From sequence record NC_047807.1: DNA of 44,970 nucleotides; one strand, 5' to 3'. The translations under genes and the position numbers were made by a program. Shown here in pieces: positions 5,994 to 23,722 of this stretch. Numbering within the stretch: the stretch's first letter is position 1; each line of letters begins with the position of its first letter. The notes below the pieces were generated by a model. That model saw only the letters and a program-made list of their open reading frames with translations, was not told the origin of the DNA and did no database searches. The stretch comes from Escherichia phage vB_EcoP_C.

Positions 5994-6060
5994 GTAACCT
6001 CCTTTTCTGAAAGGCTACCATCATGATAACCTTTAAGAAAAGTTGCGCGAAAAGCAGTGC

Positions 6061-6396
6061 TTACGCACTGACAATGTGTTTACCTAGAATGTAAACATCT
6101 ACATCTATGTCTATTTCAACTTGTGCTGTATGGAATACATGTACTTCTAATCTAGTATCTGACACTTTAGTAATCCAAGCTGTACAAAGTGTAGGTGTAC
6201 TTAATGATACAAGTGATGCCCACGAAGAATCTAAATCTCCTGTTGCAGGTACTTCTATCTCAATTTTAGTATCTTCACTTGGGACTACACCTTCAAATGT
6301 AACACGCCTTTTAGATAGTAAATTATCCAATAATGTAGCTAGTACAGTATCTCTATGTAGTAAGCCAGTTGTCTTGGGTTTAGTTAACTTAGCCAT
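6061..6396 (-). CDS. Short tailspike-module protein (111 aa), possible vestigial second tailspike or adaptor
   Basis: ORF-track frame with start moved to ATG at 6396 (AGGAG SD); sits directly downstream of promoter 6475-6497 and upstream of endosialidase. Confidence 0.55.
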   Translation of the reverse strand: MAKLTKPKTTGLLHRDTVLATLLDNLLSKRRVTFEGVVPSEDTKIEIEVPATGDLDSSWASLVSLSTPTLCTAWITKVSDTRLEVHVFHTAQVEIDIDVDVYILGKHIVSA

Positions 6397-6474
6397 ATAC
6401 TCTCCTATTACTTCCCAACCCTCCCTATGAAGATTGGCTAGTAATAGGCCGCTCAAAAGAACGGCACTATCTTA

Positions 6475-6497
6475 TCTCTTCTATAGTGTCAGTAAAT
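6475..6497 (-). promoter_or_regulatory. SP6-type phage RNAP promoter (ATTTACTGACACTATAGAAGAGA)
   Basis: Member of 11-copy promoter family; intergenic between lysis genes and tailspike module. Confidence 0.7.
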
Positions 6498-6526
6498 CGT
6501 AAGACACTGATACATAAAACTATGTA

Positions 6527-6724
6527 TTAATTATACCCGTGTTCTAGCGAGAGAATGTACATACCTAATTTTGTAGCGTCAGGTTTACTGAAGCAGACTT
6601 TATCGTCCACCTCGTAGACTGCCGTAAGCGTCGGCTTCAGAGGCTTCACCTTTGGATTCTCTGGTAACGCCGTCTGACACCCTGAAGTGATCAGCGAACC
6701 AATCAGCAGGATTGTCGCTAGCAT
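6527..6724 (-). CDS. Putative o-spanin (Rz1-like outer-membrane lipoprotein), about 65 aa
   Basis: Internal ATG with GAGG SD; lipoprotein signal MLATILLIGSLITSGC then Pro-rich segment; overlaps the neighbouring membrane-protein frame. Confidence 0.55.
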   Translation of the reverse strand: MLATILLIGSLITSGCQTALPENPKVKPLKPTLTAVYEVDDKVCFSKPDATKLGMYILSLEHGYN

Positions 6725-6821
6725 GATTCGCCTCACTTTGTGCCTCCTTCTCTTCCTTCTTCTTCTTAGCGGCAAGCAGCAGGCCAATAAGACCTGCTAC
6801 CACCTCTAGCACCTTATTCAC
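6600..6821 (-). CDS. Putative i-spanin-like membrane protein (start uncertain, track start is GTG)
   Basis: N-terminal TM segment followed by charged KKKKEEKE region; o-spanin candidate overlaps out of frame. Confidence 0.4.
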   Translation of the reverse strand: MNKVLEVVAGLIGLLLAAKKKKEEKEAQSEANHASDNPADWFADHFRVSDGVTRESKGEASEADAYGSLRGGR

Positions 6822-6963
6822 AGGTGATTACTTGGCATACCACGTCAGTGACGGAACCTTCAGTACCTTCACCTAGGTCTACGCCAAGACCTACAGAAAC
6901 AAGAGCAATCACCAGTGCAACCAGTGCACCTACCACTTTCTTAGACTTAAACAGCTTTTTCAT
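6814..6963 (-). CDS. Small membrane protein (49 aa)
   Basis: Hand translation MKKLFKSKKVVGALVALVIALVSVGLGV...; single hydrophobic helix; in lysis cluster. Confidence 0.4.
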   Translation of the reverse strand: MKKLFKSKKVVGALVALVIALVSVGLGVDLGEGTEGSVTDVVCQVITCE

Positions 6964-7071
6964 TACATCTCCCTTTCCATTGAGCTAATAAGTCCGAGTA
7001 GTTCTTCCAGTCATCATAGTTGCCATCCTCGGCAGCTTGAGCAACCATGCGCTCGCACCATTCAATACATC

Positions 7072-7416
7072 TTACCATCGTGCACATCCCTCTCTTACAT
7101 CAATGTGGGTGAAATTAGGATAAGACCCAATGCCATATTTATTGGGGTAGCGTGCTGTTAGATAGGACCATACACGGTAAGGTGTAATACCTTGTACCTT
7201 AATGTCAGCAGCCTTACCAGTAAGATGCATGGAGTTCTTAGCACCTCCCACATTAGCATTGTGCTTAGCACAGCGGTGTCCAGAAGTAATAACTACAGGA
7301 GCACCAAAGTGCTCACGTACATCTGTGACTACCTGTAGTAACTCAGCATCTACTGTGGATGTACCGCACCCACAACGGCAAGCGAACTCACGGCGCTTGA
7401 AGTGTTTGTTAAGCAT
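7072..7416 (-). CDS. Endolysin, peptidase M15-like zinc peptidoglycan peptidase (about 114 aa)
   Basis: Motif SGHRCxxHNxxxGGxxxSxHxxGxAxDI typical of the M15/VanY-like fold; start moved to ATG at 7416 with GAGG SD. Confidence 0.7.
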   Translation of the reverse strand: MLNKHFKRREFACRCGCGTSTVDAELLQVVTDVREHFGAPVVITSGHRCAKHNANVGGAKNSMHLTGKAADIKVQGITPYRVWSYLTARYPNKYGIGSYPNFTHIDVREGCARW

Positions 7417-7436
7417 TATTGACCTCGTCTTTACAA

Positions 7437-7724
7437 TTAAGCCGCAGGTGTTACAGGGTCCGACTCCATAGTAGTTGCATCCCACTTGTCGGTGGGTTCA
7501 CTCCCACGTGCAATAGCGATGTACAAGGATTGGTTTGTTTTCTCTACAGCAACCATGGCGCCTTTCTGTTTACCAGAGAGGTGTTTAATGTTGATAGGAT
7601 GATCTTTCTTCTTAAGGTCTGCTTCAGCAACAATAGGCAAAGGGATTGCCGTTGCAGTGGTTTGTCCAGTTTTTACTCGAAAAGCCTGACCAGTAACAGT
7701 ACCTGCGGTTCCATATTTAGACAT
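7437..7724 (-). CDS. Hypothetical protein, paralogue B of tandem pair (95 aa)
   Basis: AGGAG SD; shares ...SGKQKGAMV...IAIA...W.A block with the adjacent gene. Confidence 0.6.
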   Translation of the reverse strand: MSKYGTAGTVTGQAFRVKTGQTTATAIPLPIVAEADLKKKDHPINIKHLSGKQKGAMVAVEKTNQSLYIAIARGSEPTDKWDATTMESDPVTPAA

Positions 7725-7736
7725 GTAACTCTCCTC

Positions 7737-8015
7737 TTAAGCTGGGTAAATAGTAGTGACCGCTTTATTAGCTGTCAACCAATTGGAATCTTCTTTGCCA
7801 TCAACTGCGATAGCAATAACCAGGTTATCATGTGTATCAAGACACACCATGGCCCCTTTCTGCTTACCTGATTTGGTGGCATCATTAATAACATCACCTT
7901 TCTTCTCAACAGTGTCCTCGTAAACTACAGGAAGCATCAGGGCTTCACTCACAGGTTGTATCTGCTTACGAGCAGACTTACCTGTAAGGGGTTGTGTACT
8001 ATAACTATTAGACAT
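7737..8015 (-). CDS. Hypothetical protein, paralogue A of tandem pair (about 92 aa)
   Basis: Start moved to ATG at 8015 with AGGAGAG SD; shares SGKQKGAMV...IAIA block with downstream gene. Confidence 0.6.
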   Translation of the reverse strand: MSNSYSTQPLTGKSARKQIQPVSEALMLPVVYEDTVEKKGDVINDATKSGKQKGAMVCLDTHDNLVIAIAVDGKEDSNWLTANKAVTTIYPA

Positions 8016-8147
8016 TCTCTCTCCTATTATGTAAGTATAGTAAGGAAGTAAGGAATAGGGTGTACAGGAGTACACCCATACTAAGGAATACCTATATAAC
8101 CTAGGTTAACCTATATTATCCTTGTTATTTCTCTTATTATCTGGGCC

Positions 8148-8172
8148 TTCCTTCTATAGTGTCCGGTAATTA
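8148..8172 (-). promoter_or_regulatory. SP6-type phage RNAP promoter variant (AATTACCGGACACTATAGAAGGAAGG)
   Basis: Promoter family member overlapping the terminase stop codon; drives the paralogue pair and lysis genes. Confidence 0.6.
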
Positions 8173-8901
8173 ATAAGTCCTTGAAATCCTTGCAGAAAGT
8201 GTATTTCTGCTTGCCGATTTACTCCTGTAATTCTGACCGTATACTCTTTGCTGCATAGCCACGGAAGTGTTGGTTACTCTTCGCTCAGTGCCATAATCTC
8301 CATAGAGCATTGCCCTACGGAGGTGAGGTGTGTTCATAGCTTGGATATAATCGCGCATCTCCTGCGCTCTGAGGCGATTAATCCGTGTAACCTCGTCATA
8401 GTCTATCTGAGAAGTTAATTGCCGTATAGCGCCATACAGCGCGTCTAAGCGGTCATCGTGCCGGAGGCTGTTCTTCTCAATCGTGATGTTCGACATTTGA
8501 TTGAAAAGGCTGTATGACATGCGTAGTTCAAGCGGATAGTGCTGTACCGACTCAAAATCAGACTTGACCATCTCTGCGTTGAAGATGAGCCTGTGGGCCG
8601 CCATTAGTGGCTCTAGTGTTTCAATGATACGCAACTCTTTCTGTCCGGTGGCGTAATCTTCCTCCAGAGTCACAGGCCACTCTCGTTCAAAGTATGGCTT
8701 TATAACGGCCTCAAACGCGCCATGACCAAAGTTCTTTTCAATGAATACCTCTTTAACACCTGCCTGCTTTGCGGCCTGCACAATGCGATTCAGGGACGAT
8801 TCGCGGTATCCTCCCGGCACACCAAAGCACTGATACACATAAATGAATGTGCCGTGCAGGAAGACGATAGCCACACCCGTTTCATCCCCATTCTTACCTC
8901 C
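8170..8901 (-). CDS. Terminase large subunit, exon 2 (nuclease domain; GGKNGDETGVAIV onward)
   Basis: ORF-track frame 8170-8952 carries the terminase nuclease motif; sequence upstream of 8901 is intron-derived. Confidence 0.8.
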   Translation of the reverse strand, partial: GGKNGDETGVAIVFLHGTFIYVYQCFGVPGGYRESSLNRIVQAAKQAGVKEVFIEKNFGHGAFEAVIKPYFEREWPVTLEEDYATGQKELRIIETLEPLMAAHRLIFNAEMVKSDFESVQHYPLELRMSYSLFNQMSNITIEKNSLRHDDRLDALYGAIRQLTSQIDYDEVTRINRLRAQEMRDYIQAMNTPHLRRAMLYGDYGTERRVTNTSVAMQQRVYGQNYRSKSASRNTLSARISRTY

Positions 8902-9427
8902 CGGTTTGAACGTGACGTGCGAGCCAACCCTTGTGGTGTTTACGTAAACCATGTGCCACCTTACGCATATTCTGAGGTGTTAGGTTGTGCTCTTTACAGA
9001 AGTCAGTAATGCAAGTTACAAGAAACTCTTCACCATCTGGAGAAGTGAATATGTAATCTTTGCCAGTACCTTTGTTGTAAGGTGTCATGCCTTTCTTGAA
9101 CTCAGTGGCAACAGACAAGTGCTGTCCTTTCTTGATTTCAGTGGCAATACTTATGCGTTCACCTTTCTCGATGTTACCTGCTTTGCGATAACCACCTTTA
9201 CCCTTATTCCAACCCATGTTGTCATGTGGGCGTAGCTTCTCTTCTAGTGCATAACACTCTTCTTTGCTACCAGTGAATAAGATAACGTACTCGCGGCCAT
9301 CACAAAGACGGCCTGCACACTTGTGCTCTCTCATACGCTTCTTAATATCGGAGGTTACACCAATATAACCTTGCATTACATCAGTTTCACCAACAACACG
9401 AATATGATAAACTTTATGCTCTGTCAT
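8894..9427 (-). CDS. GIY-YIG homing endonuclease (intron-encoded), 177 aa
   Basis: GIY-YIG-like motif (VYHI...11 aa...YIGVT), conserved R/E/N positions, C-terminal NUMOD-like repeats; own GGGAG SD; lies inside the terminase intervening sequence. Confidence 0.8.
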   Translation of the reverse strand: MTEHKVYHIRVVGETDVMQGYIGVTSDIKKRMREHKCAGRLCDGREYVILFTGSKEECYALEEKLRPHDNMGWNKGKGGYRKAGNIEKGERISIATEIKKGQHLSVATEFKKGMTPYNKGTGKDYIFTSPDGEEFLVTCITDFCKEHNLTPQNMRKVAHGLRKHHKGWLARHVQTGR

Positions 9428-9647
9428 ATTTAACTCCCTTCAATTGTTACGTTAATTCGCTACTTTAACTTCTACTAGTCACCTAGTAGGTCGGACTATA
9501 TCTTAGGCTTGCGCCTCCCTCTGTTTCAGACCGCTTGGCCTTACAGTTAGTCTCTACACGTTCCTGTTATTGCAACAGGCTTCGCTCGGTATTGTCTCAG
9601 TGAGAGTTCCACCGAATTAAGAGGGTTTTACGCTGGCAGAGGTGTTT
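8902..9647 (-). mobile_element. Group I self-splicing intron (about 746 nt) in terminase large-subunit gene
   Basis: Splits terminase within YIDPAG|GGKNGDETG; P1 (exon GCUGGU with intron GCCAGC 9632-9637); P10 (intron CCUCU with exon-2 GGAGG); P7 core elements GACUA (9546-9557) and AAGAUAUAGUCC (9493-9504); P9-like hairpin with GUGA tetraloop. Confidence 0.75.
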
Positions 9648-10814
9648 ACCAGCGGGGTCAATGTACATAATTTTACGGGTGACAGCGCCCCATTCATACG
9701 GTCGGGCCACAGGGCGATACATAAAGTCTGTAGGCTTATTGCCATACTTCGGTGCATCGCCAATGATGTTAATAGAGTCGTTGCTCCATGTAGGCATCAC
9801 AGGGACTTCCTCTGTACCGAATGAAGTGAAGATGAGGTTGTTCAGGCGTAGCGGATAGCGGTCAGCATCCATCATGCGAGTGTTAAGCATAAACTGAAGC
9901 TGGAACTTAGCCGCACCCTGCGAGATTTCCTTCTCAATCAGCACATCATCATCATACATTTCAGGTGCACAAGGGGCACCACTATTGCCATCCAAGCCAT
10001 ACCCTGAGCGAAGTGCTGGGTTGTCCTTCATATCCTGCACAATCATAGGTGCAAGGAAGTCGCCATAGCATTGCTCCTGCTCCACTGAGGGATAACGTGC
10101 AGTCCAGATACGAACAGAGTAACCACGAGCAGGTAGGTTATTGTAGATAGAGTTTACGTTCTGAGGAGTACCAAGGTAGATAATATCACCAAACTGGTTA
10201 ATAGATTCAAACTCCTTGGTCAGTTCCTCAAGCAAGGCACGTCCTGCCGCTGTACGAGCATTCTGCATTGACTCAACGTCATCTGCTAGGATGATATCTG
10301 CACGCGCACCCTGCATACCTGCTTCGATTGAGTAACAAGACACAGAAGGCGACTTGTCACTGCCACGTAGGGTGTAATGAATCTCAAATGCCTTAACTGA
10401 GGCACGGTCCCCTGCGTAGATGTCCGGTAGCATAAACTCAAGAAAGTCTAGGCCACGGAAGATTTTAACTACCCAACCTGCGATTTCCTCTGCTCGCTTG
10501 GCGTTTTGGGATACAACCATGATACGCTTATGCGGTTCATGAATGATACGGAATACTGTATAGATTGCTGATAGTGTTGTCTTAGCGATACCACGAGGCG
10601 CTTCGATGAGGCGATACTTGTGTCCGTAGAATAGGAACTTCAAGATATCAGCCTGCATACGAATCAGATGAGGGTTGCCTGCAATTAAGTTATGAATAAC
10701 TGTGTCTGCAAAGAGAAGCAAACCTTCCGCTGTGTAAGGAAAGGTCTGCTGTAACTCCTGTAGCATCTCCCATCTGGCAAGAGCCTCCGCTTGTGATTCT
10801 CTTGCCTTAGCCAT
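9648..10814 (-). CDS. Terminase large subunit, exon 1 (ATPase domain)
   Basis: T7 gp19-like sequence; ATG at 10814 overlaps terminase-small stop (TGATG) with AAGGAGG SD; reading frame runs into intron after ...YIDPAG. Confidence 0.85.
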
Positions 10815-11113
10815 CAATCCTCCTTAGTGAATTGAATAATCTTGCCACTTGATGCCTCTCGGATAGCCTTGAGGCGCTTAGATAGCTTGGACTCCTCCTG
10901 CTGTGCAGCGGGTGTAGCGGTAATACCATTATCAAGAACCCACTTACACATAGCTCCAATGTCTTTACCAGAGACTAAATGCAGTGCTGCATCTGGGTCT
11001 TCTTCTATAGTGTCCAGTATTGCCTGTGCTTTCTTATTAAAGATTTTGGTAATAGCACCATGTAGAATGCCAACCTCGTCTTCCGTAGCTGCATGTTTAT
11101 TGTGTACGCTCAT
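10814..11113 (-). CDS. Terminase small subunit (T7 gp18-like), about 99 aa
   Basis: Position between holin and terminase large subunit; start moved to ATG at 11113 with GGAGGAGG SD. Confidence 0.65.
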   Translation of the reverse strand: MSVHNKHAATEDEVGILHGAITKIFNKKAQAILDTIEEDPDAALHLVSGKDIGAMCKWVLDNGITATPAAQQEESKLSKRLKAIREASSGKIIQFTKED

Positions 11114-22516: not shown

Positions 22517-23722
22517 TTACTCAGTAGGTTTCATTGCAGTCGGCTTAATGTCATTAGCCATCACTGCACGAACAGCAGCAACCAAATCTTCAGCAGACAA
22601 GCTAGCAGCGGCAGCAGCACCTGCCGGGGCAGCATTCTTGACGTATACAGCTTTACGCTGTGCACGGTTCAGAACCTGAGTGTGCTGTGCTCCACCAGTA
22701 CCCTCAGCCTCCCCAGTAGATGTGCTACGCTTAGTTGTCACAACAGACACTGCTTCCCATCGATCAGGGATTGCACCTTCAGACATGAAAGTATCAATGT
22801 AGTAGGTCTTCTCTTTCTTCTCATAGAAGATATCACCGGTTACATCAATAGAACGACCCACAAGCAGAGCGTCAGATGTGAACAGTACAGCGATAGCACC
22901 ATTCATCTCTGCGGTCGGGTCATAACGATAACCGTTGTCTTCATTGGACAGCAGGTGATGTTTCTGACCCTGAGAGAATTTAGGGAAGCGGTTAGACGGG
23001 ATAACAGGACAGTTGTAAGAAGACAGAACAAAACCATGAATGGTTGCACCGGACTGGCTGATGGTGTAGCTCTTGTCAACGATACGGTCTGCATCACGCA
23101 GTACGTTGAAGTAGCGCCACGGCATCAGGATAGCTACATCAGAGATGTCTACTTCCTGCTCAAGCTGCTGCTCCAGAGCAAACTCTACAGCCGCCATTAC
23201 ATACTGCGGGTTAACCAGTGCTTCGCTTTCATTGACCTCCACGTTGACAGAGAAGCCATGACCTTTCACACGAGGGTTAGTACGCTTAGCCTGAGTGTTA
23301 GCAATACCACCCAGCAGCATCTGCTGAATCAGCATTTCATCTTCCATCTTCTTAAGCTGCTTAGCTTGGTTGGTAGCCAGCTTAGGTTTCAGGCTGTCAA
23401 TATCACCCTGTACATCATGCAGGTGTGCAACGGTGTTACGAGCAATAACAGTGGCATCAATTACCAGCTGGTTTTTATCGGCCTGAGTAGAGGTTGCAGC
23501 CGGAGACTGACCCGGTGCCAGAACCTGCAACTCTGTTTCACCCAAGTATTTGTTGCTTACCGTGTTAGTACCAGTAACAGTCTGAACATCGAAGTAGGAC
23601 ATGATGTTCTCACCTTTCAGGTACTGCTCATTTACCTTACCATTGAATTTCTCAATGAGCAGGCTGTCTACCTCACCGGAAGCGGAGACTGCAACGTTGG
23701 TCAGAGTATTCGGTGTAGACAT
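22517..23722 (-). CDS. Major capsid protein (T7 gp10-like), 401 aa
   Basis: Position after scaffold and promoter; AAGGAGG SD; followed by terminator. Confidence 0.85.
   Translation of the reverse strand: MSTPNTLTNVAVSASGEVDSLLIEKFNGKVNEQYLKGENIMSYFDVQTVTGTNTVSNKYLGETELQVLAPGQSPAATSTQADKNQLVIDATVIARNTVAHLHDVQGDIDSLKPKLATNQAKQLKKMEDEMLIQQMLLGGIANTQAKRTNPRVKGHGFSVNVEVNESEALVNPQYVMAAVEFALEQQLEQEVDISDVAILMPWRYFNVLRDADRIVDKSYTISQSGATIHGFVLSSYNCPVIPSNRFPKFSQGQKHHLLSNEDNGYRYDPTAEMNGAIAVLFTSDALLVGRSIDVTGDIFYEKKEKTYYIDTFMSEGAIPDRWEAVSVVTTKRSTSTGEAEGTGGAQHTQVLNRAQRKAVYVKNAAPAGAAAAASLSAEDLVAAVRAVMANDIKPTAMKPTE

Follow-up and report, generated by a model that had tools for sequence, protein, structure and literature searches.

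Phage lambda gpD, T4 Soc and phage L Dec are late cement proteins of about 10 kDa that act in threes. The N-terminal arm of lambda gpD is flexible and becomes ordered once the protein is on the capsid. The mode of action proposed below for gp41 and gp42, two small late proteins of a K1E-like coliphage, would by analogy be the same as that of these three proteins. In the display-type proteins T4 Hoc, T5 pb10, N4 gp17 and phi29 gp8.5, an anchor carries an outward Ig-like or fibre domain. The combination of an anchor and an outward domain is also found among the family members of gp41 and gp42 (Klebsiella phage Kp7 gp47, P0276, P0263 and Vectrevirus R4596 orf44), whereas the two proteins studied here have no display domain, and their anchor module is unrelated to the anchors of Hoc and pb10. 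[quoted passage not shown] PhiM1 and HRP29 resemble our system in being T7-supergroup podophages with a small paralogous pair, made of a bare anchor and an anchor with an outward domain (PMC11440229). In contrast, the gp41/gp42 module is predicted to be mainly beta, with a pair of short helices, and seems to form assemblies of three, and no sequence or fold relationship was detected between it and the PhiM1/HRP29 decoration proteins. The module likewise showed no sequence or fold similarity to the solved decoration folds (gpD beta-tulip, Soc and Dec OB-fold). By sequence and fold, no cement or display family fits, and gp41 and gp42 belong with K1E gp41 and gp42, Kp7 gp45–gp47 and PHROG 2725. 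Kp7 has true homologs of the pair in the same slot, belongs to the same subfamily and has a major capsid protein 73% identical to that of our phage. It differs in its third member, gp47, which has an Ig-like C-terminal domain, while our phage has two short proteins only. The T7 map is not known to have a counterpart of gp41 and gp42 at the position after the terminase.

The analysed DNA is the 44,970-nucleotide sequence of Escherichia phage vB_EcoP_C (NC_047807.1), hereafter the window. The region 6000–9000 is 100% identical in DNA to Escherichia phages vB_EcoP_D and vB_EcoP_R (3 kb compared), and 98.4% identical to phage K1E, including K1E genes 41 and 42. K1E is a member of the genus Vectrevirus, subfamily Molineuxvirinae, family Autographiviridae. 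Judged by these identities, the window is a K1E-like coliphage and the small gene pair is K1E gp41 and gp42. Every gene of the region is carried by the minus strand (Table 1). The published gene order is tail adaptor, holin, small terminase, large terminase (40A/40.5/40B), gp41, gp42, M15 endolysin, holin, spanin, gp46 and endosialidase tailspike. The interrupted terminase large-subunit gene of the window corresponds to K1E 40A, 40.5 and 40B, and terminase genes interrupted by an endonuclease ORF are also present in Lelliottia phage phD2B and in the metagenomic contig L009.

Table 1. Features of the gp41/gp42 locus and related genes (positions in the window)
Feature	Position	Strand	Details
M15 endolysin	7072-7416	-	downstream of gp42
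Gene 2, K1E gp42 ortholog	7437..7724	-	ATG 7724; stop 7437-7439; 95 aa; ORF list
gp42 ribosome-binding site	7731-7736	-	GAGGAG, 6 nt ahead of ATG
Gene 1, K1E gp41 ortholog	7737..8015	-	ATG 8015; stop 7737-7739; 92 aa; ORF list
gp41 ribosome-binding site	8020-8025	-	AGGAGA, 4 nt ahead of ATG
Perfect 8-bp hairpin	8058..8077	-	GGGTGTAC-TCCT-GTACACCC, then pyrimidine-rich tract; terminator-like scan
SP6/K1E-type phage RNA polymerase promoter (predicted)	8149..8171	-	AATTACCGGACACTATAGAAGG; -17 to +6; +1 G at 8154; exact core match
Terminase large-subunit gene, interrupted	8170-10817	-	
Terminase exon-2 ORF	8170-8952	-	
Homing-endonuclease ORF	8894-9427	-	
Group I intron core	9472-9720	-	full-length Rfam RF00028; 61 bits, E 4e-14
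Terminase exon-1 ORF	9597-10817	-	
Major capsid protein ORF	22517-23722	-	401 aa

The products of the two genes are 40% identical across 81 residues (BLASTP, E 6e-13), and the core K.xD.IN....SGKQKGAMV ... IAIA ... W is common to both. A longer gp41 ORF starting from GTG-8075 was rejected; this start is unsupported because the gp41 homologs run 91–93 aa. Homologs of that length form 87 clusters for gp41, and 98 homolog clusters were found for gp42. Both genes are kept in about 180 clusters (90% identity), nearly all on phage contigs of about 44 kb, which indicates that they are real genes under selection. An earlier reading, made from the sequence alone, had described two tandem paralogs with this shared core and a strong Shine–Dalgarno sequence on each gene, and both points are borne out by the BLASTP match and the ribosome-binding sites in Table 1.

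The same reading had placed a dedicated phage promoter over the terminase stop codon, with transcription running on into the lysis cassette. A promoter is indeed predicted there. Its −17 position is 8171 and the terminase large-subunit stop TAA is at 8172–8170, so that the two overlap. The 14-nt promoter core GGACACTATAGAAG was found at 11 sites in the window when up to two mismatches were accepted, all of them on the coding (minus) strand, compared with a mean of 0.38 sites in shuffled sequence. The gp41/gp42 site has the exact core, and the aligned sites have the upstream ATTTAC(T/C)GG in common, i.e. ATTTAC(T/C)GGACACTATAGAAG. By the phage's own repeated consensus, its place on the coding strand and its location upstream of a gene, the site before gp41 is a predicted SP6/K1E-type promoter. 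The late region has only four phage promoters. One stands ahead of gp41/gp42, one ahead of the major capsid protein gene and one ahead of gp46 and the tailspike; the fourth is embedded in the small-terminase gene, a short distance before the large-terminase gene. Downstream of gp41/gp42 the next phage promoter is at 6478–6491, and the terminator-like scan gave no convincing terminator between gp42 and the M15 endolysin, in agreement with the proposed read-on into the lysis genes.

The hairpin of Table 1 sits downstream of the promoter, within the 139-nt leader of the gp41/gp42 transcript, and it persists in the centroid fold of the leader. Its equivalent in R4596 carries a terminator annotation. 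The hairpin may be a partial terminator or attenuator of terminase read-through, a processing site or an mRNA stabiliser. The whole leader RNA showed no unusual structure (z −0.72) and gave no Rfam match.

The full lengths of gp41 and gp42 match PHROG 2725 with E values of 3e-40 and 2.8e-46, respectively. Members of the family sit immediately downstream of the terminase large-subunit gene in K1E, SP6, Kp7, R4596, PM93, phD2B, POP72, Vp670, Achelous, phiEa1H and the contigs L007 and L009. The sequence-only reading had not recognised the family and had suggested a profile search. That search does find a named family, as the databases hold the pair as K1E gp41/gp42 and as PHROG 2725, albeit wrongly named. 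The sequence-profile search of the PDB gave 0 matches at E ≤ 10. The product label of PHROG 2725 and RefSeq is 'acetyl-CoA acetyltransferase'. A thiolase has N- and C-terminal domains, about 390 aa and a catalytic Cys-His-Cys. Identity with this enzyme was rejected for gp41 and gp42, which have just 92–95 aa without any domain match: Pfam gave no match for either protein at E ≤ 1, no NCBIfam acetyltransferase model matched them, and PADLOC returned nothing. A weak NCBIfam GroES match was found for gp41 (E 0.024, 14.7 bits); a GroES/Cpn10 co-chaperonin identity was also rejected, since neither the Cpn10 profile nor the GroES beta-barrel was found. The enzyme name of PHROG 2725 is wrong and unsupported by anything tested. 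The earliest use that was found is a 'putative' acetyl-CoA acetyltransferase call in the UAB_Phi78 genome paper (PMC4837284). The name is widespread in RefSeq SP6/K1E-like phages, including K1E, SP6, Proteus, Lelliottia, Vibrio, Pseudomonas and other phages.

Klebsiella phage Kp7 (Molineuxvirinae; GenBank ON148527) has three homologs, gp45 and gp46 of 88 aa each and gp47 of 178 aa, which lie after the terminase large subunit and ahead of the M15 endolysin, just as the pair does in the window. The depositors named gp45 and gp46 'minor capsid protein' and gp47 'minor capsid protein with Ig-domain'. Pairwise identity is 46% between gp41 and Kp7 gp45 (E 2e-17) and about 50% between gp42 and Kp7 gp46 (E 1e-11). 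When bands were cut from silver-stained gels of CsCl-purified Kp7 virions, gp45, gp46 and gp47 were among the proteins identified by mass spectrometry, and the authors named them minor capsid proteins (bioRxiv 10.1101/2024.05.19.594906). The bands of about 10 kDa visible on the Kp7 gel suggest many copies. The Kp7 homologs thus appear to be particle components, and the presence of gp41 and gp42 in virions is proposed through their 46–50% identity to these proteins. The Kp7 capsid entry PDB 7Y3T contains a major-capsid-protein sequence that is 100% identical to the Kp7 protein, in 7 chains, and sequence searches recovered no other Kp7 chain from it. No PDB chain, including those of the Kp7 portal-tail complex (PDB 7Y22), was matched by Kp7 gp45 or gp46 beyond chance matches. 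'Capsid' is therefore the label of the authors and does not come from a deposited structure; the two proteins may be flexible, sub-stoichiometric or elsewhere on the particle. The 73% identity between the major capsid proteins spans residues 1–362. The Kp7 protein in 7Y3T has 363 aa, and the ORF of the window has about 40 extra C-terminal residues, which may belong to a longer isoform or an extension.

The family was surveyed with a profile of the alignment A1, which contains both paralog families; in an exhaustive search of 1.84 billion representative proteins, this profile gave 214 clusters (50% identity). The module of about 85 residues exists in three forms: as two or three tandem genes, as one gene with three repeats, and as an N-terminal anchor with a C-terminal domain. 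Modules were counted in 171 sequences, drawn from the best 150 of the 214 clusters, two proteins found with the A2 profile and 21 tandem-gene products. One module was detected in 127 of them, some with a C-terminal extension, and two or three modules in 43. Nearly all of these 43 are 256–302 aa long and resemble triple repeats. The modules that follow the terminase were counted by HMM over the fetched loci, and numbered two or three in all 8 cultured-phage types with a complete count. Two modules were found in the window phage and K1E, Proteus PM93, Lelliottia phD2B and Erwinia phiEa1H (92 aa and 232 aa), and three in SP6 (gp42, gp43 and gp44), Kp7, Pectobacterium POP72 and Vectrevirus R4596. 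The third members, such as those of R4596 and SP6 (gp44), were assigned to the family via profile comparison.

The triple repeats encoded by single genes are 260–300 aa long, and 36 diverse sequences of them were collected in the alignment A2, whose profile found at least four proteins. When P0185, one of these proteins, was used as a query against viral contigs, no related loci were found. The triple-repeat genes of P0334 and P0333 lie directly after the terminase large subunit on T7-supergroup contigs of 44.8 kb and 12.7 kb. In alignment, the triple-repeat protein is colinear with the adjacent separate genes of the cultured phages. The genes that follow the triple-repeat gene on the contigs L007 and L009 have no recorded endolysin domain. 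P0324 and P0328 (794–893 aa, with 8–9 weak repeats and Big_7 Ig domains) were rejected as homologs, their similarity being cumulative and weak.

The extensions are of several kinds. That of Kp7 gp47 is an Ig domain, whose best PHROG match is a Hoc-like head decoration family (E 4e-23) with a major tail protein family almost tied (4.4e-22). P0276 has the module and a C-terminal Ig domain, P0263 has the module and an Sf6-type tail-needle knob (PF16532, E 1.7e-30), and several other extensions are beta-rich domains without a family match. A Pfam scan found no Ig domain in gp41 or gp42. R4596, Kp7 and the metagenomic contig L019 each have a set of two short proteins and one long, extended protein. 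Many close Vectrevirus relatives (about 88% DNA identity) have an insertion of about 670 bp relative to the window, which is the third gene and whose product has a C-terminal extension. The two-gene state of the window therefore looks like a variant without the display subunit, and by genome comparison the display subunit is a presence/absence polymorphism within the genus Vectrevirus. In R4596 the third member (L005:2790-3479, PHROG 32357) has 229 aa and lies between gp42 and the endolysin. At the same place in the window (7419–7436), gp42 and the endolysin are about 20 nt apart and no remnant of a third gene is visible.

The duplication is old. The sequence-only reading took the pair for a local duplication, but each of the two genes has its own orthologs in other genera, so the event is neither local nor recent. 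First genes resemble first genes and second genes resemble second genes in SP6, Kp7 and the Pectobacterium, Proteus, Lelliottia and Erwinia phages. When all domain instances were placed on the family-HMM alignment, the similarity was 1.50 for gene 1 against gene 1, 1.25 for gene 1 against gene 2 and 1.94 for gene 2 against gene 2. In the fused proteins, repeats 2 and 3 are each closest to their own position in other fused proteins. This position-specific similarity indicates that the paralogs are old and that each position has its own conserved identity. Such an identity would be expected if the positions within one assembly are not equivalent, or if each paralog is adapted to a site of its own. 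The pair in the window is probably a remnant of a two-or-three-gene set. When the three repeats were matched to the three gene positions, the signal was weak (repeat 2 closest to gene 2), and this mapping is not relied on.

When modelled alone (52 aligned sequences), gp42 reached a pLDDT of 69, with residues 1–16 and 89–95 disordered and a small beta-alpha(-alpha)-beta-beta-beta core. The disordered N-terminal arm of this monomer model holds the invariant T11, G12, R16 and K18, which hints at a binding partner missing from the model. The triple-repeat protein P0185, modelled with the alignment A2, reached a pLDDT of 89.3 and a pTM of 0.85. Such a pTM suggests that the three modules are arranged in a definite way relative to one another, and from this value alone we infer their likely three-fold packing. 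In BFVD, uncharacterised proteins of SP6-like phages were found, together with weak matches (E 1e-3 to 3e-2) to the N-termini of tailspike-like proteins (pectate lyase, SGNH esterase and 'tail fiber').

Taken together, gp41 and gp42 are probably late, abundant virion-surface proteins that take part in hetero- or pseudo-trimeric anchors, most likely on the capsid. Each would be a late, strongly expressed structural accessory protein made of one module of about 85 residues, in which a flexible conserved N-terminal arm (TGxxxRxK) is followed by a predicted beta-alpha-alpha-beta-beta-beta core with the invariant SGKQKGAMV. Three modules, either separate products or the repeats of one chain, would pack into a compact hetero- or pseudo-trimer. 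This trimer would dock on the particle exterior, where the HK97-fold capsid lattice is its most likely site, and act as a decoration, 'minor capsid' or cement protein. Among relatives, a display domain of the Ig-like, Sf6-type knob or another type would be attached to the C-terminus at one position of the trimer, and the window phage would have two bare anchor subunits only. With two genes and not three, the window phage cannot build a strict 1:1:1 heterotrimer. We infer the trimeric assembly, the capsid rather than tail location and the stabilising or adhesive role. The further proposal, which we make tentatively and with rather less confidence, is that the module is a new capsid-anchoring unit, a trimer with three anciently diverged and non-equivalent positions, one of which is a socket for display domains.

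The proteins of this family could also occupy the virion as homo-oligomers, with each paralog at its own class of quasi-equivalent site on a T=7 lattice. Paralogous decoration proteins at distinct sites, in a 5:2 ratio, have a precedent in PhiM1 (PMC11440229), the window phage has two genes and not three, and position-specific orthology fits site specialisation equally well. We nevertheless consider this arrangement unlikely, because single-chain triple repeats are encoded in the same slot and are modelled as one compact unit, which implies that the modules contact each other. It is less likely still that the modules are tail or neck anchors, onto which side fibres or accessory spikes might dock, instead of capsid decoration. 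The weak BFVD matches to tailspike-like N-termini would fit such a role, but Kp7 gp45 and gp46 are missing from the portal-tail model 7Y22 as well, the authors who had the Kp7 maps call gp45–gp47 capsid proteins, and the gel bands of about 10 kDa point to many copies. The Hoc-like head decoration match of the Ig extension also argues against tail anchors, though the major tail family is near-equal.

Roles away from the particle have far lower probability. The pair is co-transcribed with the genes for endolysin, holin and spanin, of which the endolysin gene comes directly after it, and would then be non-structural late proteins of the lysis cassette, such as timing regulators, endolysin partners or anti-defence factors. 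A link to lysis was also implied by the lysis-timing assay that accompanied the sequence-only reading. We regard it as very improbable, because homologs are found in purified Kp7 virions and members of the family are fused to Ig and knob display domains. The searches of PADLOC, Pfam and NCBIfam gave no regulator match, and the triple-repeat genes of L007 and L009 have no endolysin domain recorded after them. Hardly any credit can be given to the view that the database name is right, or that the proteins are GroES-like co-chaperonins for head assembly. The RefSeq and PHROG label and the weak GroES match of gp41 speak for it, but the thiolase and GroES tests both failed, and it is already effectively refuted. 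The trimeric virion-surface anchor is thus the reading we prefer.

gp41 and gp42 are already catalogued, and a homolog of each has been seen in virions; they are therefore not a discovery of new genes, and our reading of them overturns nothing established. In the literature searched, no functional or structural study of K1E gp41/gp42 or SP6 gp42–gp44 was found, except for the Kp7 preprint. What is undescribed in that literature is a repeatable anchor module that is split or fused in threes, has no solved fold match and bears an unsupported enzyme name. The family is mislabelled across SP6/K1E-like therapeutic phages of Escherichia, Klebsiella, Salmonella, Proteus, Pectobacterium, Erwinia, Vibrio and Pseudomonas. 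A metabolic label could wrongly flag such phages in safety screens, and a structural name should replace it. If the trimeric anchor is true, it would be a new fold and a new design, with three diverged paralogs or repeats in place of a homotrimer. The C-terminus of the third subunit would then be a naturally tolerated insertion site for the display of foreign domains on K1E/SP6-type phages. The heads of SP6/K1E-type podophages would carry a natural modular display platform, hidden behind a wrong enzyme name.

The paralogs can also be joined within a single gene. P0098 (95 aa, on contigs of up to 1963 bp), the counterpart of 7437–8015 in the window, is a natural chimera with a gp41-type N-terminal half and a gp42-type C-terminal half, joined at the SGKQKGAMV stretch that both paralogs have. 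The two tandem genes can therefore recombine with each other and be reduced to one.
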